From: Psammoneis japonica
Taxonomy: Eukaryota
NCBI GenBank assembly: GCA_008632985.1
Contig: QPGO01000045.1
Location: 372,001-436,000, forward strand
DNA: 64,000 nt
Direction of reading: 5' to 3'
Shown: positions 1,701-64,000 of the stretch, piece by piece
How the letters are laid out: every line of letters begins with the position of its first letter
Position numbering within the stretch: position 1 is the first letter of the stretch
Notes under the pieces: model-generated
What the model saw: the letters and a program-made list of their open reading frames with translations, nothing else
The model's database searches: none
Told to the model about the DNA's origin: nothing
Position numbers and translations under genes: made by a program

Positions 1701-1879
1701 GGATAGAGAGGAGTTTGTGGATTCGTCACTTTATTGGAATGCATTCCTATGCAGCAAATCGGTCAGATGGCGAACAAGAAGCAACGCGTTTTCCACAAGA
1801 GAATTCCGAAGTTCAATTTGCAGGCGAAGACCTTTCGAGAAGCTCATGTGTCTAATGGCGCTTCTTTGCAAATGCCTTG

Positions 1880-4400
1880 CTGTGAGCCACGACATTTGCC
1901 CTTGAGACTGTCTCCGCAAACCAGAGTCTCGTTTGTTTACGAAATGGCACGTGTGGCCTTTTGCTTAGATGCGTATCCCACGCTTATATCCCTCTTTGGA
2001 GATGATGACGGGGCTTACTGTGCTTTGGATCGGCTACCACGCGTGGCAGAAAGATTCTTTCAGGCTCTGGTACAACCCAATGAAAAGCAAACCACGGGGC
2101 GACCTGGACGCCGCGACGGTCGTTGCCGTTTACCCGTGCGATACAGGCAAACACGAAATCAGTGTGCTTGTGAGGGACTACAGAGTTGTTGATGTAGACA
2201 GCGCTCGTCATTTATCCAAGCAAGTCGCACATTTGGCCATGACGGATGTAGAGACGGAAATTTGCTTCGCGCGGCTTCTTGGCGAGTCCCTACATCTTCG
2301 TCTTCGTTGAACGACTTGCTAGAAACAGGGCGTGTTGCCTTGGGGTTGTTGCCTTTTCAGGGAAGACCTTGCATAGTTGTGGCTACCGACTGCAGGTCCG
2401 TTTCCTGTGGCAGTGTACTCGACCGAATGACTGAGAATGAACATGACAATCCACTTGTTGTATTGGACCTATCAAGCGCAAATTCCCATGTACAAGCTGA
2501 ACTTCATCGGTCACATAACAAGAACGATGAAGAGTACGCTACATCAAAACCAAACCCTTTTTGGCGTGGGGTGCGGTCAGGCCCGGGTCATTCCCTCTCC
2601 ATTTATCGGATGACAGTGAAGTAAGTACTATTGATAACTGTTATGTCGTCATGCTGTATCCCCTGCATGGTAATCACACTACTCATTCCTGTAGTCTCTT
2701 TTTGACCTCTGCACTGCTTCTGGGGGTTGCTTCCTGGATGAGTCTTGTTAGACGAAACGTTGGAGATCACCGTTGGTCATGTACCGACCTCCTCGGCCCT
2801 ACACTCCGACCATTTCCTCTCGTTTCGAACCAAATGCATTACAGTGAGTATCTGACTATCCTTTTATTTTTCTTCTGGAAGGCTGTTTTTTTTTTCATCT
2901 CGGCGCTCTCTCCATTTTTCAACCTTGGGTCGGGGAGACTTGCAGCCCATCGATATATCCGCCTTCGGAAAGAAATGTCTCAAAGGAAACATGGCACTAC
3001 CGTGCCTAGCACTAGGAGGGGAAAACTAGCAAACCAAGGTCCTCTCGCGAAGAGAACGCAGCCGAATCGAGTTGTCTTCTCTTCTTACGATCTCTCCCCA
3101 GTTCGCGTAATGGGACTGGTGTTGATGAGAGTTAAAGAAGGGTGCGGTGCCCGTCAATATGGTCAAAACACTCAGGAACCGGACCGAGTGTCTGTTCAGT
3201 TCACATATCCAATCGATGAACGTGGAATTGTGCTGCGCACTACGCACTGTCCTACAACGCCGCCAGAAGTAGTCTCATGGTTGACGCCGCCCACGTCAGA
3301 ATCGATCTTTCGGGGGGTAACTCTTTCATTCAGAGGGCAAAGGACGATTTTCGCTTGCGTGATCTAGCCATCCGATCAAAGACGATACCCAGACATGCGT
3401 CAGCCAAATTTTGTATGATTCTGAGGTGGTACAGAGAAGAAGATAGTCTACAGTCCGATTATGCTCAATGGAATGGTCGCAGAATTCTCCATGGTTTTCA
3501 TTGATAGATTATTCTCTCAGTTCCATGCAGTGGCGCTGTCACTTTCAAATCGACGAAGTCGATGTGCTGTGGGTGGGGCAGATACCGATATGCCCTGACG
3601 AAGGGCTTCTGAGTGAGGTCATTGAATGCGAAATGGCGAAAAGGAGTTGTTTGAGGCTCTGTCGCACTGGGTCAACCAACATGATTGTTGACCGGAAGCG
3701 CTACTACAAACCAGTCAGGTCTACTCAAAATGGTTTGCCTTCCTACTGCATTGTTTGTGTTGTCCCTCCCGCCTCTGCATCGAGGTTTTCCACCTTCAGA
3801 CTCGCATCATTCGGAGGAATCTGCGGAATGGAGAGTTTGTCGATGATCTCTCTCTCTCTGGAGAACGCAATCTTCGGCAAGGAGAACGTTATTGTCCCAC
3901 CTGTGCTGATGGACGAGTATCTTGCGGCATACGGACATGAATCGATCCTGACTTGTAGCAGTCACGGAAGCAAAGGTGTCTGAAAAACCACTATCATCAC
4001 GACAAATGGGAGCTGCCAGTCGTTCATGACGCGGAGTTCCTGCCGCTGCTCACAGATTTAATGACCGAGATCCGAAGATATTGGCTGCTTGACTATTCGA
4101 GCACACGAGCGTTCTTCGTGGTGTTTGTTCGAAGCGAGAACGCTGTCGACGTGTCATCGTTCTTCGGACCCTAATCTTGTTTAGTATCAGGTTGAAAATC
4201 TCACTTACACAGTGTTCATCAGTTTCTCTATGCGCAGAAGTGCATCCGGCATTGTTCCAAACTCAGGTGGAAAAAGTGAGAAGCGAAGATAAGGAGTGCT
4301 GCCTTGCCGTAGCGAGCCGAAGAAATTTGCTCCGCGCAATTGGCAGGCCTCGTTCTCACGCGAGGTCCGTCGATGCAACCTTTCCACCTGAATTCCATGA
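1880..4400 (+). pseudogene. Degraded large protein-coding gene, possibly SZT2 (KICSTOR)-like N-terminal part
   Basis: Chain of same-strand, protein-like ORF fragments (1969-2310, 2262-2624, 2561-3367, 3277-3504, 3468-3983) broken by frameshifts. LVLMRVKEG, ILRWYREED and WRCHFQIDEVDVL are reminiscent of SZT2, recalled from memory only. Confidence 0.3.
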
Positions 4401-4445
4401 GGCACTATCTGACAAAGACAAGGATTGCCCACAGAACGGACTAGA

Positions 4446-4940
4446 CTATGGAGCGAGGAGTTGAGATCCTAGCTTAGCAGCCGCCATACAACACATTTTT
4501 TTTTCTATTCCAGTGCGTTTTCGAGTTCGTGTACAGACGTGATACATTTGCGATTCATCCTCAGTCGAAAACAATTCTGCACCAGTCTCCTTACTTGCCA
4601 AACCATCATATTGAAGAAGAGTGTATACATCGAAATGGTACTCCTTGATGACGTATATTGTTGTTTTGCACAAATCCAACGTCGTGTGTGTACTACCGAT
4701 AAGACTATGGTGCATCGAGTCGAAGGTTGCCTGCGTTAAAATACCATGTGGATCTTGTGTGCATTGGGATGCTTTACTTGGCAATCTCGTGAACAATATC
4801 GAGTAACCCTGCAACGTGAACACTGTTGTAGCGCTCGACCTGTGGGCGTTTGGTTGCTGCTTTTTCGATACCTGCAACAAAACGATGTGCTTGCTCTTGA
4901 GAAATCATGCAACGAAATGCCTGTTGTTGCATCCGGCATG
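4446..4940 (-). pseudogene. MYND zinc-finger protein remnant
   Basis: LQQCSRCRVTRYCSRDCQVKHPNAHK in ORF 4736-4939(-) is the second half of a MYND finger. The downstream sequence continues in another frame (4446-4880). Confidence 0.55.
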
Positions 4941-5199
4941 GCGATGTATCATAGTGCACATGTCAGGGCCGTTGCAATAAAGTAAGCCTGCGATTGGTTG
5001 TTGTTCCGGTAGATGCTGCTGTCCCCTCTAACAAAAACGGTATTATCGTCGTCAAGCACCGTCGTCCGTCAATAGCCACGCGACGCGCGTAGCTGATAGG
5101 TGATGTACTTTTTGCCATTTATTCAGTCGTGCGGCATGCATGGATGCGTTGTTCATCATCAACAACCGCTGGACGCAATGCCAACCAATCATAGCCTTC

Positions 5200-6039
5200 C
5201 CTGCCTTCGGCTCTTCAACTTGAACGTCACAACTTCAATGCCCTCCACTAATTTCAATTTTCGTGACCGATGATGACTGAACCTTGGCGTCGTGAGCGTC
5301 ATTCTGAACTCTGGCATGGACATGAAAATTGTGGACGCGTGCGATGACGACGGTTGGGTGCAATCACCACAGCCACAACATCTTGACTCTTTGAGCACAC
5401 TGACACGTTCTTCGTGAAGTTTGTTCAAAGCAAGAGTGTCGACGCGCTCCTCATCTTGTTGTTCAATGCCACAGGTGGAAATTCTTGTTGCTTCTCTTTG
5501 GACGCTTTTCAAGATGACTTCTTTCTGTTTGAGCCAGGTGCATCAGAATTCTGTGCGAAAGTGCACCAGCATTGTTCCAAACCCAGGTGCTTCAGGGGTG
5601 AGGAGAAGCAAACAAGACAAGGCGCATCATGCTGTCTCTTGCTTGGAGAAGCCAAAGAAATTTGCTTTGCACAGCTGGCAGGCCTTGTTCTCACATGAGG
5701 CCAGCACAGTCACTCCACTTCTTGTGTGTTTTTCTCACCAAACAAAATGGCTGTGGTGCACTTCTTGCTTCCAGGGGTGACAGTGGCTCAGTGAACAATG
5801 CGCGCCAATGGAGCAGACCACGAAGCTCCTGGCACAACATGGAGTTGGTTGTTCAGCCCCCCAAAAGTGCAGCATTGCAGGCTGGCAGCAGGTGCGGTTG
5901 AGGAGGACCATCCTCATGATCTGCTCACACAGCAGCAGCTGTGCAGACAGGGAGTTTTTAACAGGTGCATGCTCTTCAGAGCACAGGCGCACTGTGACAG
6001 GAGAGAGTGCGTTCAGCACTGGAGCACATTGCAAATTTT

Positions 6040-6099
<60 letters not shown>

Positions 6100-33644: not shown

Positions 33645-34670
33645 TGCAGTTGTCTTGGGATGGCACTGGAGGGCTCCGGCAGGTTGCCAGGGACATGCTT
33701 GCAACCATGGTTGGGGAGCAAATGCTTTGTCTTGTGTCAATGCAGCACCTTGTCTCTCTGACATGACTGGCTTTGGCGCCCAGCCTGCCAACAAGCAGAG
33801 ACAAGAAAACCATCTGTGTGATGGTGCAAGTGCTTTGTTGTTTCAAGATGGCATTGGATGAGTGGACTCCATTGGGTCCCAGAGGATGCAATGACAACAA
33901 AGGTTGTGAAGCAAAGGCCATGTCTTGTGTCAACACAGCACCCTGTCTCTTTGACATGACTGGGTTCTTTGGCCCAGCCACCCCACCTGCAAGGACAAGA
34001 AAGCCATCTGTGTGACAGCACAAATGCTTTGTTTTGTCTTCTTGGGATGGCTTTTGGCAACTCCATTGGATCCCAGAGGAGCCAACAACAACCATGGTTG
34101 GGGAGCAAATGCCTGCTTGTCTTGTGTCAATGCAGCACCTTGTGTCTCTGTCATGTGACTGGCTTTGGCCCAGCCACCCCACCCACAGAGACAAGAAAAC
34201 CATCTTTGCAACAGCGCAAGTGTGCTCAGTTGTCTTGGGATGGCTTTTGAAGCCTCCATTGGATCCCACAGAAGCCAACAACAACCATGGTTGGGGAGCA
34301 AATGCCTTGTCTTGTGTCAATGCAGCCAGCACCTTGTGTCTCTGACATGTGACTGGCTTTGGCCCAGCCACCCCACCCACAGAGACAAAAAAACCATCTG
34401 TGCAACAGTGCAAGTGTTCAGTTGTCTTGGGACAACTTCTGGTGACTCTGTTGCATCATCCCAGAGGAGCCAACAACAATGGCAGTTGGGGAGCAAATGC
34501 CTTGTCTTGTGTCAATGCAGCACCTTGTCTCTCTGACATGACTGGGTTTGGCCCAGCCACCAACAACCAATTTGCAAGCAAGAAAGACAAGGGAGCCATC
34601 TGTGTTGCAGCACAAGCACTCAGTTGTCTTGGGATGGGCACAAGAGACTTCATTGGGTCCCTGAGGAGGC
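33645..34670. repeat. Tandem array of 5-6 diverged ~190-200 bp units
   Basis: Unit starts (CAGTTGTCTTGGGATGG-like) at ~33648, 33836, 34033, 34228, 34419 and 34621. The shared core is GGGGAGCAAATGC..TGTCTTGTGTCAATGCAGCACCTTGT..TGACTGG.TTTGGCCCAGCC. Confidence 0.92.
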
Positions 34671-43535: not shown

Positions 43536-44207
43536 AAAGGATGTGATGTTTTTCGTGCGCCCGTCGTCTCCTAATTACCGTATATATTTTAATGTTATAC
43601 GAATTAATTATATACTACTACTACTAGACGTTAAGTGGAAGCCAGAGTATGTAGCATGTACTGTACAGCATACTGTAACATACTTTTAATGTGTCACGGC
43701 GCTACTCCAACAGATATGCTCCTCTTATTTTATAAGCTCAGAATTCTGTATACCCGAATAATATTTTCTTTTAAGAAAGAGACGTTGAATCAATTATGCC
43801 GCCCGGCGCGTCAATCCCAACCGCCACTTCTTTTTCTTTTTTTGAAAAAATGAGATGCAACGGGAAGAAAATCGATCCAAACATACCGTACCGTACCAAC
43901 ATACCGCTGATCAAAAAGCACCGCAAGCGCAAAGAGACGCCATTTTCATTGACAGCGAATACCGGTAGGGGACCTACTCTAAAAGAGACGATCGCCTTCA
44001 AGAATCATGCGATTTTCAACGTGGCTGCTCGTCATGGCGGGATGCATAAGTGAAGTGAACAGTTCAAAAGCAAGCATGAGCAGATCAACGTTGGCTGGAA
44101 GGAGCCAAATGGATTTTCACCGGGCTCGATCGCTGCAGACCTTCAGTAGTTTTAGTATTTCAAGATCGTGAGTAATCTAAACTGCAGCTTTTGCATTCTG
44201 AAGAAAC

Positions 44208-47152
44208 ATGTCATCCCTCACCACGGACATTTCGCATGTTCCTCTCCCGCTCGATTCTCTCTTACGAAGCGCGAGTCTTACTGACATCAGATTCGCGGAT
44301 AAAGATACTCCGACACCCTCGTCTAGCCCAGTTGAGACAGAGCCTGATACAACCTCCAACCCCACAAAGAAACCATGCAACCCACAACCGACGGTTTCGC
44401 CAGCAACTTCGCCAACACCCGCAGGTACTCCGGCAGTCCCATCTACTCCCGTTGTGACAGAGTTTGACGAAACCTTTGAACCTTCTACGATATCGTCGAA
44501 GCCACCCTCTATTTCTACGCCTTCTTCTCCTCCGTCAGTCTCATCTACTCCCGTTGTGACAGAGTTTGACGGTACCTCAGAGCCTACTACGACACCGTCG
44601 AAGCAGCCATCTGTTGCCACAACCTCTTCGACGACTCCGACAAGTCCAGCAAACCCATCATCAGTGCCAACACCCACGGATACCCCGATTGCCTCATCTA
44701 CTCCAATTGTGACAGAGTCTGAGGCAACCTTTGAACCTACTACGACACCATCGAAGCTGCCATCTGCTTCCACGCCATCTTCTCTGATTCCTACAAGTCC
44801 AACCAATCCACCAACAGCTCCAACACCCAACGACCGGGATCCTTCCATCCTAACTCCTACTCCTACAGACTGTAACAGTGAACGATGTAATGATCCGGGA
44901 GACGGGGACACAGATGACTTGGTCGTGAATTGTGTCGAAACTGTTGAAACAGCACACCTTATCACAAAGACGTTGATGTTCAAATATACCGTAGACTTCG
45001 ACTTGGTACACCAGTTGCACTTGCTTGCTTTCATTGCCTCTGTTAAAGCAATGGTACTACGCCATCTCAAAGATTCCGATCTTTGTGTGGGTTCCAATGG
45101 GATACCGCAGATTGTGTCTCTTTTGGGCTCCCCACCCGATATGCCAATAGGAGGTAAGTGCCTGAGTATCTGTGTGTACTGTAAGAAAAGGTTCTTCTTC
45201 ATTGTAGTAAAGCTAATATCTCCGTTGGCCTATTTATGGAACTGCGTGAAGAATGCGGTGAAAGGTGCCATGAGATACAAGGAGCCATGACAGTGACATC
45301 CTTCGATGGAGCTGCATTTGATGCGCTTCTATGCAGAATTTTGGAAATCATTCAAGAGGATTTTCGTGAATTTAATGGAATCACGTATCTCTATGCAGAT
45401 ATGAATTGTAATCAAGGTGACACGGACCTTACAGAACCACCTTCGACGGCAACTCCTACCTATTTAACTTTGGGAGGTGGACAAACGGCTCCTCCTTCAC
45501 CACACCCAACTCTGGAAACAAGGACGCTACCACCATACTATCTAACTCCCTCTGATGTTAGAACAATGAACCCAACCCAACAAAGTGAAAAGAGTTCTAC
45601 AACAACGGAACCGACAAGTGCCCAGAGCTCGTTGTCTCCGGAGGCACACTCCTCTACAGCTGCTCCAACCGTTCAACCTACTGAGAAACCGGTTGATAGA
45701 TTTTCTTCCGCTCCAATAGCAGCAAGGACTCTGGCTCCAACTAAACTGGGATCCCCTTCAACAACTACGCCAAATACCCCTACGATTAGTCCTACAGGCT
45801 CATCCAGTGCGCATGACGAGGCAATTTTCCCGTCCACGTCGGTTCCGTCTGGTTCACCTGGACCTACCACACACTATTTCACTCCATCCTTAACCCCGGC
45901 TGAAACTGTGTCGCCTGATCCTTCAACTCCCTCACCAACGTCACTGAATGGCTCAGATGGCGATTTTTACACCGATGGGGTTACCTCCGAAATCACTTGC
46001 CTCAATGCTCTTGTCAACGAGACAGAGTCCGTGCCATTGAACTTTACTTACAATCTTATGGTAGACATGAGCAACGAGCATGATGTGTACGTGGCTTTGC
46101 TCGTCATTGATTTAGCAATAATGGAGAATCTCAACAAGATTGGAATATGTTCAAGCAGAAGACAACTTAATTCCGTCACGAAGTATCATCGAAAGAACCG
46201 ACGTTTGATGGATGGTTTGGTCAAGGTATCGTCGATGCCCCTAGACGAAATTTCAGGCGGTAAGTTGAAAATTGCAAGAGATATGATTAGGAAGTGTTGT
46301 ACCGCATTTCAATTTATTGCTGTAGTTCTCACCTTGTCTTTGTCAACATTAGACTGTGGGTCCAACTGTACGTTGATTGACGGCAGTATGACCTTAATAA
46401 AGTTGAAGGGTGCAACTGAAATGGAGTTAACAAAATGCAAAGTACTGGACGCGATTATTTTTACCATGGATGAGATGCCGAATGCCAACTTGATATCTTC
46501 GGAAATAGAGTGCAACAAACACCAGACAGAAAGTAACGGTGTCGACGGCGTGACTGAAAGCGAAGACAAAAGCAGTGATCGCTTCCCTGTATCTGCTTTT
46601 GTTGGAATTACTGTTGGTAGCGCACTTGTCTTGGTACTTGCCGTCTTTGCGGCGGCGCGTAGAAGGAACCGTCGTGATTTTGATAGTCTTTCTGACATCG
46701 GAAGCGGCTCTTGTGACTCGCAACAAGACGAATCTGTTGGTCAATCCTCATATTCAACCTTCAAGTCTCCGGGTAGTAGTGTTACGCCATTCTCTGTTGA
46801 TAGTGATGGAGCATGTGTTGCCAGGCCTGGCGACGAACAGAGTAGTTTGTCATTGCCAGAGGATTACGTCGGTAGCCCGGGATCCCGCGACGACGATTGG
46901 AAAAATCTATTATTTTCGCCAAACGGCTTGAAAATGTCACGATCCCTGTTTTCGCCGCGATCGCAGAAAGAAGAGCGTCCCCAAATTGAATGCTCTGATG
47001 CCGAACTAGTAGACTTCTTCCCATCGCAACCAAAGGACCCAGTCGAGCTCATGCAAACAATTCATGAAGATACAATACTGGGTGGCTCTGTCTCTGGACA
47101 GTCACACAATAGCGATGATCTAGTCGGTGAGAGGATTGGTGAAGCCGCGTAA
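44208..47152 (+). CDS. Type I membrane, Ser/Thr/Pro-rich (mucin-like) protein with two related Cys-containing domains; introns ~45154-45251 and 46260-46352; true start uncertain
   Basis: Long clean ORFs 44208-45290 and 45236-47152. Phase-1 GTAAGT donors at 45154 and 46260 with CTAAT/CTCAC branch sites; splicing gives PIG|ECGERC and ISG|DCGSNC. TM helix AFVGITVGSALVLVLAVFAAA is followed by RRRNRR. Three internal STPxVTExxxTxEPxT repeats. Confidence 0.8.
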
Positions 47153-47889: not shown

Positions 47890-48780
47890 GGCACTGTAGT
47901 GAGAGAGTGAACTTGCCCCCATGATTATTCCATCATGCTGTGGCAATTGAGAGTCAGTTAAACCCTCGGTTTCAATGGCTGCTTGTATAAGTTCCAATGC
48001 CTGAAATGCTCCGGTTGTTGATACCGATCGCGATATCGTTTTGCCCAGAAGCTCGAATCGGCGAAACGAGTGCTGAGTCCAACGTCTTTTTCATTGTAAG
48101 TACTGGTAGAGTACTTTCCACTAAGCATGCCTCCCGCCAATGGATTGTAGGCATAAAAGTGAATATTACATTTTCTCAGAGCCGGAAAGAGGTCCTTCTC
48201 GACTTGTCGTGTAATGGCGTTGTACATTCCTTGATAGTCTAGACTGTCGGCACAATGTATCCATCTCGAGACGACATGTAGAAATGAATATAGACTGTTC
48301 CCCGCGTGGTAGAGTTGGAAAGACCAAGCGACGGAATTTCCCTTCGGCACTTATGGATTGTACTTGTTCCAACGTTTCTTCAATCGGGTGGTTCACATCA
48401 GGCGCGTGCAAATAAAACAAGTCGACACTCTCTCTCTTGAAGAGAGGCCAGGGATGATTCCAGCTGTAATCGAACACCGGTACGAGATAAACTCTTGTCG
48501 GGAATAAAGGGGGTTGCCTTTGTAGCAACCAAACACTTCGAGAGCGACTTGTTTTCTTTCAGAACGTTGAACGTGTCCCAAGGTTTCTCCTGTCTTTCCT
48601 CCCTGATAGACTACTGCACATGATTGCTGTATCCTACAATTAGAGACATGGTGTCGCCGTGAGAAAACAGTCAAATGCTATAAATAAAACACGATTGTTC
48701 TTACCAGCATGGGACTAGATCCAACGGCGCTCGACCACTGAGTGTTGTTGCAGAAATCGTCCATCATCATGCGTGTCTCC
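47890..48780 (-). pseudogene. Aldo-keto reductase, AKR7 (aflatoxin B1 aldehyde reductase)-like, frameshifted
   Basis: DTAIM, YQGGKTGETLG, SVDLFYLHAPDVNHPIEETL, YQGMYNAITRQVEKDLFPALRKCNIHFYAYNPLAGGMLSGKY, YRDRY and DGIIMGASSL are spread over several frames. A GTAAGA...TAG intron (~48705-48634) appears to be retained. Confidence 0.85.
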
Positions 48781-51399: not shown

Positions 51400-52085
51400 G
51401 TGGCTTGTTTGCAGGTTTGCCACGGGGCTTCCGAGGCAGAGGCAAGCCCTTCTTTCTTGCGTCGATGCATGCTCTTTCATATGCTGTTCACTTCAGCATC
51501 TCGTCTGTCTCATCCTCGGACTTATAGAATACGAGGTTCTCGCATGGCACCCTCGTGTCGTCGTCTAATTCATAGATAGCAAGCATTTCCTTCGCATTCA
51601 TGATACCGAAATCCATTCCGGGCTCAAGGATTGAGTGAAATTTTGTTACTCCTCGGAATCCAAACGAAAGATTCGAAATACCACCGCTAACCTTTACGTA
51701 CGGACACTGTTCCTTGATGGTCTTTGTTGCGTTAGCAAAGTCGACCCTTACAGTAGTTGGCGTGTTCCTCCGTGCCGGTGCCAATTGTCAATACATTCGG
51801 ATCAAACACAATATCATCTGGAGGGTAACCCTTTTCATTTACAAGAGTGTCGTACGAGCGCTTGCATATCCAAACCTTGTCCTCCTCGGTCGCTGCTTGT
51901 CCTTTTTCGTCAAACGCCATGACTACTACTGCAGCACCGTGTTTCTTCAACAATATTGCTTGTTCCTTGAACAACTCTTCTCTGACATTGAGAGAGATGG
52001 AGTTCACAATACACTTGCCCTGGCACCACTTTAGTCCAGCCAAAACAATTTCGAATTTGGACGAATCCAACACAAATGGAACTTT
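51400..52085 (-). pseudogene. METH: Cobalamin-dependent methionine synthase, pterin-binding-domain fragment
   Basis: [32 protein letters not shown]...[18 protein letters not shown]...[21 protein letters not shown] | VDFANAT...VSGGISNLSFGFRG...GMDFGIMNA. It has a frameshift, an internal deletion after GFRGVTK and a stop, and both ends are missing. Confidence 0.92.
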
Positions 52086-52639: not shown

Positions 52640-53990
52640 CGGATGTTACTCAAGTAAGGATGAATATGGTCCTTGGAATACTCGATATAGTCCCTCAACA
52701 GTTCTTGTGTGAGCGGAGGCCGTACGACCGAAGGAGTTTCGTAGTACAATCCAACAAGGTGCCGAGCCAAACGCCGGTCATGTTCCACGTTGGGAGAATC
52801 CATGACCAAGTGCTATAAATCAAATCAAGCGTGGACAGCAGCGTTGGCGGTAGTTGAATGTTATCCACCACAGGGATTGTACCTGGACGAGGTAGGGTTG
52901 GTTCTCCGACGCCAAAATAGAAGTCCTTGCGTGGAGCGTGGCAATAATACCAGCTTTGGCAATGCTGACGGTCTGTTGCTCCATGGCTTCATGAAGTACG
53001 TACCGAGCTTGTCGAATCCGACATTTTTTGTCAAACTCATCAATACAGCAGACACCAAAATCGCTAAGAACTAGAGCGCCGCTTTCCAAGACTAAATCCC
53101 TCGTCTTGACATCACGCATGACAGAAGCTGCCAAACCCACGGCGGAGGGGCCTTTACCAGACGTATAAATCCCTTGAGGTAAAATCTTGTGGACAAAGCC
53201 AAGCAACTGCGACACCACAGAGCAACATATTAGGTCCTAATGTCGCCACGCTTGACTAGAGAGCCGTATTGATCTTGGACGTCTTCTGGTTATCATCGTC
53301 GCTGCAAATGACTTGGCCCTGCTTTTACTTTACTCGTACGTGGTTACCACCAAAGAGTATGCAAAGAATACCACGCTTTGGGTCAAGAAGTTGTCAATCA
53401 AAAATGTCCGGCTCTTGCGACAATTTCGTGAGCTCTTCAACACGTTCTGGAGTGAAGCGAGACGCACGCTACGGTAGGCCACCACTGTGCGTCTCGTCGT
53501 TGGCATTTACACGCCTGAAATGAATCACCTCGATATTGTATTGTATACAGAATCGACCTTGCTAATCTTGGGGTTTACTCGTCGTGGTTGGGCTTGTAGC
53601 ACCCCTGTGATTACAATACGGCCGCCCGGCTGAACCTGATTGACCAAATCGTCAAAGAGAAAGGAGAGAATCGAAGCCGGTGTTTGTCCAGCTGGCACTT
53701 GATTGGGTGTCTCTTGAATACGAAGAGCTTGCTTATCAGAAAGACGCACCGATTGCGTACAAGAGCAAAGGAGTTACGGCAGCTACAGACACGGCAAAGC
53801 GCTCAACATTGCCACAAACGCTGCATCCAAAGTGCGCCACCTTGAAATAATGGATGATCGGCGAGCTTCTTACCAAGAAACCTTGAATACTTAGAGGCGA
53901 GTCCAGTTGATGGGGTGGGTACAGTCTTCTCAGATGCGACAACTCCTTGAGATGAAACGGACGGACTTGAATGTTAAAAGATAGCAAGGT
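52640..53990 (-). pseudogene. MCM4: DNA replication licensing factor MCM4 (central part), heavily disrupted
   Basis: [50 protein letters not shown]...[41 protein letters not shown] and DRRLARHLVGLY. Many frameshifts; truncated at both ends. Confidence 0.92.
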
Positions 53991-54138: not shown

Positions 54139-55600
54139 ATGATGAATGATACCAATGACAATACCGTAGTACTAGTCCATGTAAAGGCGATGAGTGAACG
54201 TTTGGAGGAGAAAAAGGATCCACATAAGGAGGGTGTTGTCGACGATGTGCTTTTTGCTTGTAACTTCGTTGTGAAAGTTGCAGTGACGTTCTTATGCTCT
54301 TGTAGTTCTTGCTTTTCCGCTAACAACAGCTATATCAATCGCTTTACACCAGATGAAACGCAGATGTGGTTCAAACACAGTACGATTGTCAAACAGATGG
54401 AACTCAAGACACGAAGCATTGCTACGGCAGTTGACAATGTTGACGCGGTGGATGAATGTGATGATTCTTCTGATGACCATCCAGCGAGCGACGTAGAAAT
54501 CTACGAAAGTTTTGTACTAGCGAAACGCAAATAATTGGCTTTTTTCTCGCAAGCGATCTGTTCGGCAGGTGCCGTTGCGGAAGTGATGCATGGTCGGGAT
54601 GCCATCACAGAAGAGGAGCAGGAAGCACAACGGATTCTTGAGGTGTGCACACTCATTGTGAAGCAAGGGTTGCTTTTCCACACGGGAAGTTCCTTCTTCC
54701 ATGCCAGGCAACTGGGGTGCCATGTTTGCGCAGCACTCCTTCTGCCTGACAATTTGTCAAAATGACTTTGGTCCAAGATCAAATCAGTGGAGATCTTTTG
54801 CCTTTGCTGGCAATGGATGACAGCAGTGGCAATTCAAGCACAGAACCTGACCAGGCCACTTCAAACTGGATGGATGCGCTGGCACGACTGATTGAGCAAG
54901 TTGAGCATTCCCAGTTTTGTTGCTCCGGCTCACATGAGTGCTTTCAAGGGCGCGTTCCAGGGCAGAAGACATCATGCAATCTCGTTGTTCTTTTGAAAAA
55001 GCATGCAATGTCTCTTAAAAGTTGACACACTCAAACCAGGGGGTGGCTGACAATTGGGCTGACAACTGCACTGAACTTGTCAGAAGATTTCATGGGCACA
55101 TTTGTGCAAAAGCTTGGCGCGGACCACAAGTCCTCGTGAGTCTCAATTGGCAGCTGCAAAAGCAACTCCAACATGGTCACTCAATGAAGAAATCCCACTC
55201 ACTCCTCAAACCAGAGGATCAAATGCATTGAAAGTTGTGACATTGGCTGATTCTCAAAGAGTGCAATTTCAGATGGTTTGTTCACTCTCCGACAATGTCG
55301 CGCACAATGCTCTGTCACAAGAGCAAAGACACATGTGCAACGCTGGTTGTTTGTTGGCTGCAAGTTGATCATCAAGCCAACAATGCAAGAGCACCTGTCA
55401 CTTTGGACCTGTGGCAGCCCACCTGCAGCTGGCGGTGCTGTTCATTGCTGTCAATGACAGCCCTTGTTCACAAAGCAGTGAATCCCACTGACCCACTTTT
55501 TGAATCTGGCAGAAAAGAAAGCACATGTGTGGAACAATGTCTGCTTGGTCACCAAATGGGAGGAAAGAAAGGTGTCTGCAAGGTCATGTGGAGATGAGAG
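54139..55600 (+). pseudogene. Unidentified degraded gene that runs from normal sequence into tract E
   Basis: ORFs 54139-54534 and 54535-54765 are in the same frame, separated by one TAA, and continue into 54762-55025. TA dinucleotides vanish after ~54535. Confidence 0.4.
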
Positions 55601-58600
55601 TCTCACTCTGGGGGCATGGCATTTGGAAAATCTGTGCAGGCCAGTTTGATGGGCCCTTCAGAAATCTTTGCATTTTGGTGCAAAAACGCACACAATGAAG
55701 AGATTTGGGCTAAAAATGAAGACAGCAGCCAGCAAAATTGACTTGCACAAATCTTGCAAACAAGAGTTCTTGGTGCTGCCACTCTTTGTGGCGGTGCTGT
55801 GGGGGGACTCCACCATGAAAAGCATTGTTTCTTGCCAGCCCCATCTTTCTTTCATTTGCAGATGGTGATTGTTCTCTGGGTTGTTTGCTGTGGTCTGACT
55901 CTGTGGTCTGCACATTGCTGCTGAAGAAGGGAAGAGCCTTCAGCGGGTGAGAGAATCCACTTGGGTTGTGGCCAATGTGCCTCCTCTTCCTGTGGATCCC
56001 AGTGTGCCAGCACAGCTTGTCTGTGCACGAGACAAGTGCACAGGATGCAAGGACATGTGTGATGCTGTGACTTTAATTTTTCTTTGTGTGTGCAGCACTT
56101 TGCTGTGTGACTGAGTTGCCTTTGAGCATGCTTTTGTGAGAAAAAACTGGTGTGAGGCAGGTGGAGTGTGCTGGATGTTAAAAGGCTGCCCCACGGTCCT
56201 GATTGTGCACTCATCTCCTTGCTCTTCCCAGTGTCAATGAATCTGGCCTTTTTTCTCTTTGTTGCCAGAGAAGAAGCAACTGTCTTTTGAAAAATGAAAG
56301 CAGCACACTGTTGAGAAGAAAGATTCCCTGGTGCTGGTTGCAGCACATGAGGACGATTTGCACACGTTGTGTTGGCTGAGCAAATTCTGTGTCCCTCAGC
56401 AATGCCTTTCTCTTTGCTGAGACCAAGCCTTGTTGGGCCCTTTGTCTGAGTGAGTTGATCAAGTTGCCATTTTGTGAGCATGTGGGTGTGACATCCCCCT
56501 GGCCCTCTTTGTTGAGAACAAGACTGACATGTTGGCTCTCTTTGACTTCCTTTGACTTGTTGAATGTCAAAAATTCAAACGAGGTCTCAAGCAAAGCAGT
56601 TGATGACATTTGTGCCACAGCTGCATCCACATTGAGCACCTTGGTGAAACAAAGGTTGCTTGCAGAAGCTGTGATCACCTCAATGTCTGTCCTGCATGGT
56701 TGCAGTGCTGGCTGCAGCTTGCCTTGCTGAAGATGGGCAGGGCTCTGTGGCAATGCACAAGGACAAGGATGATGACAAACCCTCAACACATCAGCAAGAG
56801 TGCCAAGCACCAGGTTTGCACAATGCATGGTTGAGTCAAATGCAGCTGTGAATTCAAAAGAAGATGTGACCTTGAAAGCAACGCACCTGGCTCCACACAA
56901 GGCAAAAAAAATGCTCACATTGTCTTGCTTCATGGGAAGAATCAAGCTTGAACAACACAAAATGGAAGACAATGAGCTTGTTGCAGGTGCACCCAATGTG
57001 AAAATGCTCTGTGCTGCAGCCCAGCTTGACATGGTTTTGAAGATGCCACACTCTTGTTTGGGTGGCTCCAATGCTCTGAGCCAGACAGCTGTCAAAGGTG
57101 AACTTCAAGCCATTTTGTTGATGCAGAATGCTTGCAAAAATGACCCCGTGGAGGTGCTCAAGTTTGCTGGACACTTGAGTGCCAAATGGCGTGTTTGGGG
57201 AAGAACAGGAACATGGTTGTTGGCCCTCATTGGAAGCAGATGTCCTCTGCATTGAAGAAGAGGTGGCATTTGCACGGGGTCAACAAAGTGCAAGAAGAGA
57301 GCTGTTGCAGCCACAGAAAAAAGTGGCCATTGCATTGTGTGTGCCTTCAAAACAATCTTGGTTTTGTGTGGCCAATGCGGGTGTTGGCGCTGCTGCCAAT
57401 GAGGAAACTGTTGATGTTCCTGAAACTGCCAATGCAGGAGACAAGAACATGTGGATGAAAAAGCTTCCAAAATTGACAACAATGTGCCTGAGAAAGAGAA
57501 AGCAAAAGCCCTGACCAGCTTGCAAAGAAGCAAGCCTGAAAAGCAAAGGCAGTTCCTTGACGATCACAGTCTGGAGACAGCTGTGTGCATGTTCCTTTCA
57601 CAGCCACTTTTGTTCTCCAAAAAGTGCCACAAAACCACTCTCAAAGATCATTCTGCCCCTTGTGGGGGCAACTGATGCTGTGGTGTTGCTGTCTGCCTCT
57701 CCCAAATTGCAACAAGGCTGTGGTGGTGGTGTTTCTCACCAAGGTTGTGCCATTTGTGATGACTTGAGCCCTCTGGCTTTGATGGCACCATCTTGCCAGC
57801 AGAACTTGCAAAGTTTTGCATTCTGTTTTGAAGGGGTTCTCAACACCCAGAGGTGCCCTCACGGTGTGAACAAGTTGCCAAAATCCACGGGATTGGCCAA
57901 CAACCATTTTGACAGCACTGTCATTTTGGGAATCAAAGATGTTTCTGACAGCGGCTGGAGCAGGTCCAATTGGCTCTGCCTCAGGGTGTCCATTCTTAGC
58001 TTGCAAAAGATGATCAGCAATTTTGTGGTGGTTGAAGTGTGGCACCCCAGTGTGATCAAAGCAATGGCGGTCTTTTTACCTGCAACTTGTTTCCCCTCAT
58101 TTTTCTCACCTGCACAAAGGACTTGGCCCATGATGTCCCATTGCACTGAACTCAGGAATTGGCCATCATGCCCTTGGCTCACCTTGTTCAGCAGCACAAC
58201 TTTGATCACAAGCTCTGCTTGCAGGAAAAGACTGGTGCTTGTTTGAACGCTGTTGCCACAAGCACAGTTTTCATTTCTTGTCATTTGTGATCTGAAACAA
58301 AGACCCATTGGCAAGGGCTGGTGCTCATCTGCAAGACTTTGTTGGGGCTTCAGTCATGGTGTCAAGGCCTGGGGAAAGGCTCCAAGAAAAGTGACTGGCT
58401 TTGTTTCCACCCCCAGATGGGCTGAGAAAGAAGGTGGGGCCAGGCAAATCAAGAAGAGAATCAGCTTGCTGGAGTGAAACCCATTGACTCCCCAGAGCAC
58501 ATGAAAGCCAGAGGCAGAAGCAGACATGCTTTAGAGCCAGCACTTTGACTTGTGTGTCAGTGCTGAATCTCTTGTTCTTCACAGAAAGGTTTCTCAGGCA

Positions 58601-61600
58601 TGTCAAACTCACCTTTTGGAAGCACAAACCACCGGTGGCTTTGTCATTGACATTCTTCTGTTGCTTTGCCATTTCAGTGGAACACTTGTTGCATGGCACT
58701 CCCCAACCAACAACAAGCAAACACAAAAAATTTACAAAAGAAGAGTGTGCAGGCAATCAGCACCTGTTCAGTCCAGCACATGTCAAAAAATGTCAAGCAC
58801 TGGTGTGCATCACAGCAAGTGCCTCATCTTGTGCAAAACCACAGCCAACTGCATCAAAACAGCAATGACATTGCATGGCAAGCACTGCAGCTGCCATCAC
58901 AGTCCTCCACTGACATGTGCACAAAATGAGTTGCACGCAAGCAAAGATTGCTGTGCTGCACTTTCAGACTTTCTGCATCTGTTGGGAAAAGTTTCAACAA
59001 GTCAAAAAATGCAGTTGAAATGACGGTTGCTCAGATGGTGCAATGTTGCCTCAAAAGCACCATGAAAAGACAGCCCTCAAGCTTTTGTGCATTTTCAGAG
59101 TGAAAAATGTCATTAAAAATGCAAGGGTGAGGACTGCAGAGACACAACAAGAAAACTTGCAAGTCAGTTGCACGCTTGATCAGTGCTCCCTGCAAGTGAT
59201 GACTTGCTGCACCACTTCACTCGTGCAGCAGAAGAAACCCCAAACCCTGCATTCCACCACCAGCAGGATCTGCTTGACAAGCTTTTGCTGCTTCACAGAC
59301 AAACAATGCTGTCTGCTTTTCAACAGCTGTGGCCTGATGGGTCAAGCAAACAGGCAACTTCCCACAGTCAAAGACACAGGAGTGACATGGACTCCAGGCA
59401 AGAGACATGTGCTTGGTTTGCCCCGACCTCCAGACTCAACTGGCAACACCTGCATTGCACATTTCAACAATGCAAAAGCATCAAAGCAATGAGAGACAAC
59501 ACTTTGTGCTCCAGCAAAATGAGTTGTAGAACACCAAACAAGAGCAAACAATTGGGGCTGTGGGAAGGGTGAGCCATGCACCCTTGGGTGCCAAGGCATT
59601 CCAGCTTGGTGAACAACAACATCATGCCAGACAACAAGTTGTTTTTGACAAGATTTTGCTTGAGTCATGACCGTTGCTAAATTTCTCAATCACTGTCATT
59701 TTTGTGCACCTTCACAGAATTGGCACCATGGTTTTGCATGTGGAACATTCTTTGGAACTTGGCACCCAAAGTCATTGCCAATTGCTGTGCAAGCTTTACA
59801 ACAACCATCAAACTGCACAAACCATGCAGGTTGGCTTTGATGGTTCCTTCCTGGCACGGCTGCTCTAGATTTGAGTGGCAAGTGCTCACTCCAGTGAGTT
59901 GCACTCCTTCAAAACCAAAGAAAGCGATACGTTTTGAGTCATTTGTTGTTCCGACACCTGGTTTCGGCTTGACAGCTCCTCTCCACAATCCAGTCCACTC
60001 TTGTTTGAGCATTCCACAATTTTGTCCACAACTTGTGGCAATGAGCTGGGTGCATTTGGATGGGTGCTCTTGGCCAATCGTTTTCGTTTCTCACCATTGA
60101 GACTGGCAACATGCTCTGCATTCTTTTCCATGTGTGCATTGCGGCACAATTCTACGCAAGCGCCCGTGGGATTGTCCTGTGTGAGAGTGTGGTGGTGTGC
60201 CAACCTCCTCGGGCACTTTGGGATGTCAGGCAGTTGCGCCAATGACAGAGAAACCAAAAGGCATCGGAGGGGATGCTCTGTTGTGTCCACGTCCGGGGGA
60301 GCGGCGCCGCCATGGTGTCACATCTCTTTGCATTTCTTTCCCGATGTCAGCATGTTTTCTGCGTTAAATTCTGCACGATGCAGCAATTTTCAAGTCAGTC
60401 ATTTCAGTGCAAGTTTCGCGCACAATTCCACGCGTTTGGCCAGAATTTCAAGTCGACGACCGTGCAAGGTTTGTCCTCTTGTTCTTCTCACCAACATGCT
60501 TCCTTTGAGTTTTCTTTCCAACACACTGCAACATGTGATGGACATTCTACGGTGTTCCAAAGTGGGTTGTCACAAGTCTTCCAAGTGGTTCGCAGTTCCA
60601 AGTCTTGGTGTTGCTTCTTCATGCTCTTCGATGTTGCAACTTCAGCACACAATTTCTGTGCAATTCTACGCATGACGGAAATTTCATCTGACAACTCCGA
60701 TCATCATTTCCTTTTCCTTCGTTGGGGTCCGTGTTGGACTTTCTTGGGTGTTTTTCATCCCAGGAATCCCTCTCACATCTCTTCAAGCATGTCATCTTCG
60801 GAGACAGACACGAGTTTAGTTTTTCTGCAGTGTTCATTTTGGTGTCTCCCAAGTGGTGTGGCTGGGCTTGTCCATTCTTCGAGGCACAGCAACTGTGGTT
60901 GCCGTGTGACAAGCATCCGGTTGGTTGCCATTCTGACTTAAAACAAACAGCCTCTTTCTGATGATGTGTTGACGGCATTGCCTTCGGACAATGTGTCAAT
61001 GGCATTGTCTTTCTGACAACATTTGACGGTGTTCAAATTGTCCCTGCCGCCCTTTGTGGGTGCTGGGGAACGTGGGTCTGCTGTGGTCGGTGTTGGTGTG
61101 GGCGGCAGCGAGGCAGCGGCAAAACAGATTTCGAGTTTTTTTTTCATGTGCGCATCGCAACAGCCGTCAAAGCCCACATGCGGTGCATCTGTTTCAACCA
61201 TGAGTCTGTCCAGTGGTGTCAGCCCCTCTGCCAGGCAAGCCTGCACCTCGGCGCAATTGTCGCTGGACTCTCTGCAAACAAATCCAGAAATTGAGACAAA
61301 GTGCCCCCACTTGATGCGCTCACGACATTCCTCTCTCGCATTCCAGCAAAACAATGGATCAATGCTGGAACCTGCGCAGAAGCCAAGCACTCTGTTGTTT
61401 CATCAAATGCAAGCCTTTCATGAACAAACAGCAGGAGATTCAATTCAGATGCTAACTCAACTTGGGCTCGAAACCAAGGCAGTTGATTCTCAAGTGGTGG
61501 AAAGCCTTTACTTGCATCCAGACCACATTCGCCCACAGCTGCCATGGTCTCCTTGTTTTCTTGTGGCAATCTCCTTGCAATTTCCAACTTTTCATTTGCA

Positions 61601-64000
61601 GGCAGTCCCTCATCGTCCACATGACAAGGATGCACACCGACCGTTGTCTTTGTGGGAATCATGGCATTTGTTCAGGAGAGTTTTTCCAAGCCGACTTGGG
61701 CCTCGGCTGGAGTGGAAGACGGCAAGAGCACAGCCACAATGTTGGATTCTTTTACAGCGTCTTGTTGTAAAATGTCAAAAGTGGATTTTTTGTCATCTTG
61801 CGGTTCTGACTGAAAAGAAATGAGATCTTCATGCCACAAGTTGCAGTCCACGTCAATCAACCGGGGTGATGGGGATGGCTGGATTGCTGACATGATGGTG
61901 TGAGCATGAACAATTCTGCCAATGCGGTGTCTCATTGCAGTGCTTGACATCAGCCTTGTGGAGCCAGCTGCTGCAGTCAATGTTGGCACAAAGGAGAGTC
62001 TCATTGGCAAGAAGCGAATTGCCAGCAGCGCAACAACAGCTTGGCTCTGTGCCCCCCTTTAAAAGCAGATCAGTGAACAGCAGATGCCGCTCAGCGCATT
62101 GAAGATGACAAGGAGAGCATCATGGCAGACACCATGACAGCTGACAGCACACAGCATGGCCTCAGAGGCCGCAGCATTCTGCACCAAAGGCGACAGCCAG
62201 GCAGCGACCGTCGGACCCGCGGTGGACTTGTTTGAAAAAGAAGCTCAGACCTCCAAGAAGAGAAAAACAAGCTTTGCAAAACTTGCTTGTGCTGTGTTTG
62301 CACTTGTGCAAACACTGCATTGGGCTGCATGCTGTGGATTCAGGCACAGCAGATCAGTTTGAAGCAAGAGCTTGGTCTGGCTGGCCACCCACATCCTTGA
62401 GAGGTGAGCATCCCTGGCAAAAATGTTGGTGTGGTGCTGGCCCAAGCAACTTTTGCCAGAGGCTGCTGACACAGGAAAACAAGATCAGTGCCATGTGTTT
62501 TTGTTCTCAAACTGGCAGCACCCCCACATGGCTGCAAACTTGTTCATTTTTCAACCCAGCAGGGGCAGTGGTGCACATTCTTGAGCAACCATGACTTTGT
62601 GGCAGCAAGTCGTGGTTTGACATTCTCTCTGAACCCACCAGCAATTTGCCCCGACAAGCTCTTGAAATGTTGCTGCCCTTGTTGTGTGCTTTCATGTGTC
62701 AACAACAAAGTCAGAGAAGAGGCTTCAGTGGTGAGCACAGCCCCAGCAACTGCCGGGCAGCATCAACTCACACAACATGGAAAGGGGTGGGTTCCAGTCC
62801 CAGGTGGGATGATGTTTTGTGACATTTGCCCCGCAGAATTCTGCGTGCATCCCCATTGCTGAGGCAGCCCACACTTGCTCCACAATGTCCCACCACAACA
62901 TTGCATGCTAGCGCTGCGCAAGCTTGATCCTCATCTCTGTGAGAAAGCTGCTGGCTGTCAAACTTGTTGAGCTTTTGCTTGTTTTGCTCTGCACTTTTAA
63001 GACTGACAAAACACTGGATTCATGCTGATGCAAAAGTGGCTGGCTGCAGCTTTGCTTGTTGTGAGAAAAGACATGTTGGTTGTCGCCAATGACAAAAGAT
63101 CAGATCTGCAAAAGTGTGGGCCAAGGCTGTGGTTCAATGGAAAAAACAGAAACAACAAGCCCTCCACACAGCAACAAAACATGTGTCTGTGAGGCCAAAC
63201 AATGCCACAAAAAGAAAACTTGACTTTGGGCGGGGGTTGAAAAAGCTTTTTCTGTGACCTCTGCACCACCAAAGAGACCTGCCAGAGAAACAGGGAGTCC
63301 CAAGCAGCATGGCCATGAAACACCAAATGTCCACAATTGTGTGTCTTTTGCGCAGCTTGCAGCTTGTCTTCAATGGAGCGCACCAGCCCCACAGACACAT
63401 GAAAGCAGTTTTTCTTCTCTGGTCTCAGCTCCTGCGCCAGGTGCTTTGGTCATGCAACATGTGCATGAAGAAGAGCTTTAAAAGGACCTCAAGCTTGCCA
63501 CCAAAAGTCAATCTGTTGGTTCAGTGCCCCTCAGAAGAATGGCTCCAATGACACCCACAACAAAGCAGTGCATGTCAGCTGCTCACTGAGTGGAGGAAAG
63601 CACCAAGGAGAGACTGGCTCCTGTTTGTGCCAGCCATTGCCATGCAAGTGTGGAGCAAGCTGGGATTTTGTCTAAAAAACCAACTGTTGTCCCTTTTCTC
63701 CCCACAACTTCTTTTGTTTCAAAATGGCAGTGGAAGCCAAAAAGCCATCAGAGAAGCCAAGTGGCCACAGACACTCTGTGAAAATGCCTGCACTTTTCTC
63801 CTGTCTGCTGCCTCACTCTGGGGTTGGGAAGGAGCATTTCACAGCTTTGGTGAATCTGCATCTCCACTCCAGATGCTCTCATGATCTGCTTTGCTGGCAC
63901 CAAATTTCTCTTGGCCCAGGAGCAGCACAATTTTGGTGGTCTCCAGTGCATGATGTGGCGTGGCATGATCGGGCCATCACTGCTGTCTGCCTGTCTGGCA
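54540..64000. other. TpA-depleted tract E (CpG largely retained in ~59900-62230)
   Basis: Tyr-free ORFs (e.g. 56211-57095, 294 aa). Residual TA is mostly TTAA/CTAA/TTAG/CTAG. Confidence 0.9.
61120..61890 (-). pseudogene. tatD: TatD-family DNase, hypermutated and frameshifted
   Basis: LIDVDCNL, TTVGVHPCHV, AAVGECGLDASKGFPPLENQLPWFRAQVELA, LFVHERLAF, LIHCFAG, GHFVSISGFVC and PLDRLMVETDAPHVGF are spread over three frames. Confidence 0.88.

Follow-up and report, generated by a model that had tools for sequence, protein, structure and literature searches.

The window analysed here is a stretch of 64,000 nt of Psammoneis japonica DNA (GenBank assembly GCA_008632985.1, contig QPGO01000045.1, positions 372,001 to 436,000 of the forward strand). 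Towards its high-coordinate end it carries a TATDN1-like gene of the TatD family, which is very probably (a probability of about 0.8) a dead diatom duplicate lying inside a block of regional, transition-only hypermutation. The direction of the changes, their context rule, their strand symmetry, their sharp regional limits and their speed relative to the background divergence can be read directly from the data. The TatD relic is in itself ordinary, and its value lies in the codon-level polarity that it gives to the hypermutation: a gene of known ancestry shows, codon by codon, the removal of TpA by A:T to G:C changes with a trinucleotide rule in a diatom.

The TatD gene copy and its sister

The Pfam family TatD_DNase (PF01026) matches both reading frames of the copy, with E values of 8.3e-20 and 5.5e-06, the second match scoring 26.4 bits, slightly below the 27-bit cut-off. 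A protein search with the first 185 codons returned 101 of 298 candidates at E ≤ 0.001, and the closest relatives are diatom TatD proteins (56% identity, E 1.9e-54); the relatives named belong to Nitzschia, Cylindrotheca, Fragilariopsis, Bacillariaceae and Epithemia, all of them diatoms. When five diatom orthologs were used as tblastn queries, three gene pieces were found, from 61893 to about 61333, from about 61330 to 61145 in another frame, and from 60128 to 59889, which together span residues 4–303 of a 314-residue ortholog. As judged by these alignments, the stretch is a minus-strand TATDN1-like TatD gene copy that runs from 61893 to 61145 and resumes from 60128 to 59889. The earlier note on this DNA had placed the gene at 61120..61890; its motifs do lie there on the minus strand, but that span is incomplete, as it leaves out the final ~80 codons, located at 60128–59889.

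The copy retains the metal-ligand motifs of the TATDN1/TatD_DNase family (IDVDCNLWH, GECGLD, VHER, IHCF and ETDAP), and the N-terminal IDVDCNLWH is the motif of the diatom clade of TATDN1. Unlike the working members of the family, it is broken at three places and contains no Tyr, which makes it a relic.

Contigs of three runs from one sample were compared with positions 59800–62100, and two forms of the TatD region were found among them. The window-type contigs have a word depth of ~50–58, show 0–5 differences per 150–313 nt and span the stop codon, the frameshift and both insertion junctions described below. The other form, the sister copy, has a word depth of ~57–114 in run X1 and is the only form present in run X2. 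It joins 60128 straight to 61145, has G at 61674 (codon CGA) and is two letters shorter at 61331, which restores the frame of the orthologs. The likeness between the sister and the window covers about the length of the gene only, ~59898–62020. The main features of the copy are as follows.

61145–61893, minus strand: 5′ part of the TatD pseudogene, from the start codon to the repeat insertion; PF01026; tblastn residues 4–186 and 184–~255; holds the four motifs discussed below
59889–60128, minus strand: 3′ part of the TatD pseudogene, ~80 codons, stop codon at 59888–59886; tblastn E 5.8e-15; includes His 60062–60060 (Tyr in the sister and in the orthologs)
61672–61674, minus strand: in-frame TGA; CGA (Arg) in the sister, a CpG to TpG change (place 61674, A>G); a window-type contig with 0 differences spans the site
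61331–61332, minus strand: 2-nt insertion in a gagag run, causing a frameshift; the sister (X2) is without these two letters and in frame with the orthologs
60129–61144, no strand assigned: 1016-nt high-copy repeat in the TatD copy; X1 and X2 each have one contig with the joint 60128/61145

No intact open reading frame is left in the window copy, owing to the TGA, the 2-nt insertion and the insertion of the 1016-nt repeat. The pseudogene status claimed in the earlier note is thus borne out by three lesions, all of which are missing from the sister copy of the same sample. Because the window copy has these lesions and the sister has none, the former is a true pseudogene, and the latter looks intact wherever it is visible.

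Direction and speed of the changes

In X2, the sister and the window differ at 77 places over ~1059 nt (7.3%, ~93% identity), comprising 71 transitions and 6 transversions. Polarity was counted on the 40 differences listed out of 113, 35 of which are supported by X2. In 17 of these 35 the sister has TA and the window TG or CA, and the reverse was not encountered (0 cases, p = 1.5e-5). In a further nine the sister has CG and the window TG, CA or TA, one CG/TA double change being counted as two places; the remaining listed differences are three with CG in the window against TG or CA in the sister, two other transitions and four transversions. On the coding strand, the 17 TA losses are divided into 10 A>G and 7 T>C changes. 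Twelve of them can be read as TAY (Y, pyrimidine), a share that is not significant when taken alone (p = 0.07).

At the listed places where an amino acid changes in a conserved column, the sister has the residue of the orthologs: Tyr 60062 (His in the window), Val 60052 (Ala), Leu 60007 (Ser), and likewise Ile 61279, Ile 61218, Met 61731 and Ser 61724. Of the 21 context-type inferences, 7 are borne out by its letters at the listed places, and none is at odds with them. Four TA sites that the sister retained and the window lost (61480, 61259, 61244 and 60075) are synonymous; selection on the protein therefore cannot account for the asymmetry.

The sister has at least 20 TA sites in the compared stretch, and at least 17 of these have been converted in the window, at a context-free divergence of ~1%; the window retains only four TAs there, one of them new. 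By a rough calculation, the TA-directed rate is about two orders of magnitude above the background. The new TA, at 61509–61510, stands opposite CG in the sister; it is a double transition that made a TAC-readable TA, which was not mutated again. This hints that the TA process is episodic rather than continuous. At 61318, 61337 and 61375 the window has CpG where an otherwise window-type contig of X1 has TpG or CpA; these three mismatches could be CpG polymorphism or assembly-level differences.

Codon record against orthologs

Four motif readings reported in the earlier note, GVHP-C-H, ETDAP-H-V-G, W-G-H-FVS and GC-C-DA-H, were found on the minus strand with the letters given there. The codons concerned and the changes proposed for them are listed below.

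61624–61626, minus strand: TGT (Cys); Tyr in 93% of orthologs (GVHP-Y-H); proposed change TAT→TGT
61301–61309, minus strand: TGG GGG CAC (W-G-H), orthologs R-G-Y; proposed changes CGG→TGG and TAC→CAC
61175–61180, minus strand: CAT GTG (H-V), orthologs Y-M in ETDAP-Y-M; proposed change TAT ATG→CAT GTG, both at TpA (ccg cat gtg at 61183–61175)
61148–61159, minus strand: TGC..GCG CAC (C-D-A-H), orthologs R-x-x-Y; proposed changes CGC→TGC (61159–61157) and TAC→CAC (61150–61148; gcg cac at 61153–61148)

The reading of the window, with X at the stop codon, was aligned to 27 full-length diatom orthologs. The ancestral residues proposed for all four motifs coincide with the consensus of the orthologs: Tyr (0.93) in GVHP-Y, Tyr (0.96) and Met (0.96) in ETDAP-Y-M, Arg (0.89) and Tyr (0.81) in R-G-Y, and Arg (0.96) and Tyr (0.93) in GC-R-x-x-Y. 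The attribution of the Arg to Trp and Arg to Cys replacements to CpG decay also agrees with the alignment, as CGG→TGG and CGC→TGC match the Arg consensus and the TGA stop corresponds to CGA in the sister.

None of the 329 codons of the TatD copy encodes Tyr, while the 27 orthologs have 6–11 Tyr each (mean 8.6). A conservation of 70% or more is reached in 180 of the 306 aligned columns, and 127 of these are retained in the window; these include 127 of the 173 conserved columns other than Tyr and none of the seven conserved Tyr columns (Fisher p = 1.4e-4), where the window reads His four times and Cys, Arg and Phe once each. When 3 frameshift-handling artefacts and 11 multi-step cases were excluded from the 53 replaced conserved residues, 39 single-step replacements could be classed. 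In this codon-by-codon check, 17 are TA>CA or TA>TG and four are CG>TG; the others are seven other transitions, ten transversions and one ambiguous case. TA sites make up a few per cent of the possible single-base changes, an expectation that was estimated without simulation, and a share of 44% is therefore a large excess. The multi-step cases include TAC>CGC, in which both letters of a single TA have changed.

According to a corollary drawn in the earlier note, Tyr should become His after a purine. Four of the five Tyr to His changes conform to it; the fifth, His 60062–60060, follows C, which is allowed because TAG also has a mutation rate (see below).

Hypermutated blocks of the window

The observed/expected ratio (o/e) of TA over the whole window, 0.34, conceals a bimodal structure. 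Five hypermutated blocks, at ~5.3–8.6, 13.5–19.6, 28.3–36.9, 39.0–43.3 and 54.5–64.0 kb, have o/e values of 0.04 for TA, 0.19 for CG and 1.83 for TG/CA, against 0.64, 0.98 and 1.16, respectively, in the normal DNA of the window. The GC content is equal (0.48 in the hypermutated and 0.47 in the normal DNA). CpG sites number 328 in 29.9 kb of hypermutated cores and 1678 in 30.5 kb of normal cores. The borders are abrupt: at 54532, the spacing of TA passes from ~20 nt to hundreds of nucleotides. The last block holds the TatD copy.

54533–64000 (runs off the end of the window), no strand assigned: hypermutated block holding the TatD copy; TA o/e 0.04–0.10; CG o/e 0.15–0.18 in the flanks and 0.47–0.51 in TatD

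Inside this block, the loss of TA is nearly complete throughout (0.04–0.10, with 0.06–0.08 within TatD), whereas the CG o/e is graded from 0.15–0.18 in the flanks through 0.47–0.51 in TatD to 0.73 in the 1016-nt insert. This gradation would fit a fast TA process combined with a slower CpG decay, with the flanks arriving first, TatD second and the insert last.

In six of seven hypermutated sub-blocks TG is about as frequent as CA and RTGY as RCAY (R, purine), one sub-block deviating at p = 0.03, so the record is symmetric between the strands. A 194-nt tandem array (33702–34566, 4.5 copies, 79% matches) lies within a hypermutated block, and CA/TG is the commonest double-transition pair between its copies, with 14 cases against 6, 3, 2, 1 and 1 for the other pairs. 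Such an alternation is expected if each copy resolved ancestral TA or CG sites independently, after duplication and in place.

Pfam gave no transposable element (TE) domain in the hypermutated blocks among 150 of the 156 stop-to-stop open reading frames of at least 110 aa and all 120 block reading frames of 75–109 aa; those left out were four overlapping TatD and two at 63000–63881. Apart from the TatD reading frames, only three weak matches below the cut-off were obtained there. The tRNA and Rfam scans of the 64-kb window found nothing. A run of 62 T is present in a hypermutated block at 6036–6097.

It might be supposed that there is no targeted mutator and that the blocks are old neutral DNA at the equilibrium of a genome-wide bias, the normal blocks being constrained or young. 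An excess of TG/CA and a moderate depletion of TA (o/e 0.64) do occur in the normal blocks too, and the extent of CpG loss follows the apparent age (flanks 0.15–0.18, TatD ~0.5, insert 0.73). However, the sister retains synonymous TA sites, the listed differences are split 17:0 at a background divergence of ~1%, the block borders are sharp to tens of bases, and both Tyr and TA are retained in a pseudogene fragment of methionine synthase (MetH) that lies in a normal block (see below). We therefore consider such an equilibrium improbable.

It is also quite improbable that the sister belongs to another strain, subgenome or organism and that its comparison with the window is uninformative about a local mutator. 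It is true that X2 contains the sister form only and that the two forms differ by 7.3%. Yet normal and hypermutated blocks alternate along one contig, the word depths of the two forms are alike in X1 (~50–58 and ~57–114), and the alternation of CA and TG between the tandem copies shows mutation after local duplication.

Context rule

Survival was calculated with the normal cores standing in for the original state of the hypermutated ones. According to the earlier note, TAY is converted to TGY on either strand, and the rule was found to operate window-wide. TA sites that cannot be read as TAY on any strand survive at 32% (59 in hypermutated against 185 in normal cores), those with one TAY reading at 2.5% (18 against 734) and those with two readings at 0.2% (1 against 440). 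All five blocks show this ranking (Fisher p = 2.6e-32). In a Poisson fit with two readings per site, the number of hits per reading is 4.2 for TAT, 2.7 for TAC, 1.2 for TAG and 0.18 for TAA, and TTAA survives at 64%. The TAY rule is thus right in substance, but the preference is graded (TAT > TAC > TAG >> TAA) and TAG is also hit. A window-wide count in which TAC/GTA seemed enriched among the survivors, contrary to the TAY rule, turned out to be an artefact of mixing the block types; the enrichment was reversed when they were separated.

A to G changes with a 5′ T or U preference resemble the action of RNA adenosine deaminases. One might accordingly see in the TatD copy a retrocopy of an A-to-I hyper-edited transcript, and in the blocks retroelements edited in transposition; the restriction of the sister likeness to about the gene length (~59898–62020) would suit this explanation. 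Nevertheless, it has only a slim chance of being correct: the two strands carry similar numbers of changes (10 A>G and 7 T>C on the coding strand among the listed places), with no TG/CA skew in the blocks, the TA loss continues unbroken into the flanks of the TatD copy, and neither a poly-A tail nor a reverse-transcriptase remnant was found. Miscalls at methylated motifs occur with some long-read chemistries, and the three window CpGs (61318, 61337 and 61375) that differ from an otherwise window-type X1 contig would be compatible with modified bases of heterochromatin (5-methylcytosine, modified A or T) miscalled as TG/CA, but such an artefact is highly implausible, given that the window form, with its stop codon, its frameshift and the two junctions of the insertion, recurs in 31-mer contigs at a depth of ~50 and that indels and a 1-kb insertion also separate the two forms.

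Several observations weigh against regional hypermutation in the form proposed here. Not all A:T>G:C changes are at TA sites (exceptions are places 61263 and 59998 and cases of N>D, K>R and I>V), and a few TAC-readable TAs survive, namely three TCTACG in the insert and those at 61509 and 61753. The apparent dependence of the CpG loss on the preceding base (T 1.3, A 1.1, C 0.7, G 0.19) is confounded, as RTAY→RCGY double changes would refill the seemingly protected class, and it was not relied on. The four motifs are located outside the listed sister differences, and their reconstruction comes from the orthologs. The sister is not pristine, since the invariant Tyr column at 61318 reads TGC in it (CGC in the window); it could be an allele, a homeologue or the copy of another organism, and the run behind the window form may be the data used for the window assembly.

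The 1016-nt insertion

The summed word depth of the insert, 518–5336, is far above that of its flanks (~100–340), and the insert is therefore a high-copy repeat. It is flanked by an imperfect direct duplication of ~18 nt (60129–60146 and 61145–61162), carries a run of nine T at its high-coordinate end and has o/e values of 0.10 for TA and 0.73 for CG. Neither terminal inverted repeats nor canonical splice ends were found in the 1016 nt, and BLASTP gave no alignment of the insert with TatD.

An intron was ruled out, as the joint, which has a slack of 5 nt, allows no GT..AG pair and X1 has a contig of the joined form beside the window form. A transposon with terminal inverted repeats was set aside for their lack, and a poly-A retroposon because the A/T run is at the wrong end for target-primed reverse transcription. 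Positions 61144–60941 were also considered as a degenerate second TatD C-terminus, a candidate rejected by the missing BLASTP alignment and by the fact that three of the five orthologs end their alignment at 61106–61130.

Three of the six surviving TAs of the insert (60153, 60548 and 60667) share the short motif TTCTACGC, which is part of an internal direct repeat of ~21 nt with spacings of 276 and 238 nt, despite TAC being a favoured target. This motif may be conserved in the repeat family.

Other genes of the window

The fragment of methionine synthase, MetH (51449–52085, minus strand), corresponds to residues ~417–640 of ~1245, has a frameshift near 51745–51753, lies in a block of normal composition and has kept its Tyr codons. 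It is 83–86% identical to diatom proteins (83% in the first part). The relatives of both TatD and MetH are diatom proteins, and the window therefore comes from a diatom or a diatom-derived nucleus; a dinoflagellate origin, suggested by the richness in TG and CA, was rejected on these grounds. The MetH fragment is adjoined by an MCM P-loop domain fragment (52823–53236, minus strand, Pfam E 3.6e-42), a gene piece or exon whose Walker-A region looks disrupted or cut at an exon edge.

The normal-composition blocks also contain a GPR180/TMEM145-like membrane domain (840–1394, plus strand), two pieces of aldo/keto-reductase in different frames (47961–48558, minus strand) and long open frames of 362 and 655 aa without a Pfam match (44202–47149, plus strand). 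Tandem repeats of 102 and 153 nt at 44428–44829, within these frames, would encode repeats rich in Ser, Thr and Pro.

Proposed mechanism and its significance

Two kinds of change prevail. In the first, A is replaced by G at T-A-(T > C > G >> A) on either strand, so that TpA becomes TpG or CpA; in the second, C is replaced by T at CpG, which also yields TpG or CpA. In coding sequence, the former converts TAY (Tyr) codons to Cys or His codons, Met and Ile codons that follow T to Val, and xTA to xCA, and the latter converts CGN Arg to Trp, Cys or stop; the TatD copy displays this pattern. As for the chemistry, we prefer a proposed enzyme that deaminates adenine in TAY of silenced DNA, the resulting hypoxanthine pairing with C, with deamination of 5-methylcytosine at CpG as a probable second arm. 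The combination would fit the products and the requirement for a 5′ T. As an alternative chemistry, oxidised thymine might mispair with G, giving T to C at RTA.

The targeting seems to depend on where the DNA lies or on its chromatin state rather than on duplication or non-function as such, because the sister was spared and Tyr is retained by the MetH pseudogene fragment of a normal block. It is conceivable, although we hold this tentatively and at less than even odds, that the blocks are the product of a diatom genome defence similar to the repeat-induced point mutation (RIP) of fungi but with a new chemistry, in which the adenine of T-A-Y would be enzymatically deaminated on either strand of silenced nuclear DNA, in addition to the deamination of cytosine at CpG. 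Such a defence would erase TA within ~1% of neutral divergence and kill the gene copies that land in the target domain, with GC left unchanged. If this is true, the unchanged GC would explain why composition scans missed the process, and it would be the first natural DNA A to G hypermutation system described in a eukaryote.

Should the process prove to be genome-wide, it would amount to a novel mutational signature, probably with a novel enzyme activity behind it, of interest to the base-editing field, and blocks free of TA and CG would be a simple, GC-neutral marker of silenced diatom DNA. They would also be a warning for annotation, as gene relics in them would be disguised by the systematic replacement of Tyr, Arg, Ile and Met codons. 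The role of the diatom RID-related DNMT4 or of deaminase genes in genome defence would then become testable.

Comparison with known systems

TadA and ADAT2-3 act at U33-A34 of tRNA and ADAR on double-stranded RNA; the outcome is A to G, with a 5′ T or U required. The changes described here have the same outcome with a 5′ T: TA>TG/CA makes up 17 of the 35 listed differences and 17 of the 39 single-step replacements, with T > C > G >> A as the 3′ neighbour, and the TadA target UAC(G) resembles TAY. These enzymes, however, act on RNA, whereas the diatom record is genomic, symmetric between the strands and confined to blocks. The strand-specific trace of an RNA substrate was not seen, as there is no strand skew in the blocks and the listed TA losses include 10 A>G and 7 T>C.

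A second parallel is the CpG decay of methylated TEs. The loss of CpG to TpG or CpA is confined to the hypermutated DNA, as decay of the 5-methylcytosine type would predict at the sequence level, with nine listed places where the sister has CG. Decay of this kind accounts for the Arg to Trp and Arg to Cys replacements, for the TGA stop and for the CG o/e of 0.19, but it cannot account for the loss of TA, which is faster and more complete (in TatD, TA 0.06–0.08 against CG ~0.5). Diatom TEs are reported to be CpG-methylated, and diatoms have a RID-related DNMT4 whose function is unknown (PMC9998398).

A RIP-like hypermutation at TpCpG, with C to T changes at CpG in repeats and a preference for the 5′ neighbour, has been described in Pucciniomycotina (PMC3318451). 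This system is described without an A to G component, unlike the diatom process, and it is strictly TCG, while the diatom preference is WCG (W, A or T; T ~ A > C >> G), a ranking confounded by TA to CG double changes (PMC3318451).

The nearest counterpart overall is RIP itself, although RIP belongs to ascomycete fungi and the present process to a diatom. In Neurospora and other ascomycetes, RIP converts C:G to T:A, mostly at CpA, and thereby creates TpA and lowers GC; it is premeiotic and requires a methyltransferase of the RID type. To our knowledge, context-specific hypermutation of unwanted DNA has been regarded as a fungal speciality that always proceeds by C to T. The two processes are both regional, restricted to transitions and dependent on a dinucleotide context; both riddle non-functional or duplicated DNA and kill gene copies, and both leave sharply bounded mutated blocks beside normal DNA, as the diatom blocks and the ratio of 71 transitions to 6 transversions illustrate. 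The chemistry of RIP was not found here: in the diatom, TpA is removed (o/e 0.04), TpG/CpA rises to 1.83 and GC stays at 0.48 against 0.47. RIP also mutates both duplicates, whereas the diatom sister was spared (17:0 among the listed differences), although selection could have kept the working copy clean. A full-text literature search, in which most subscription journals were not covered, found no description of TA-directed DNA hypermutation in diatoms or elsewhere, and the process looks like an undescribed relative of fungal RIP.

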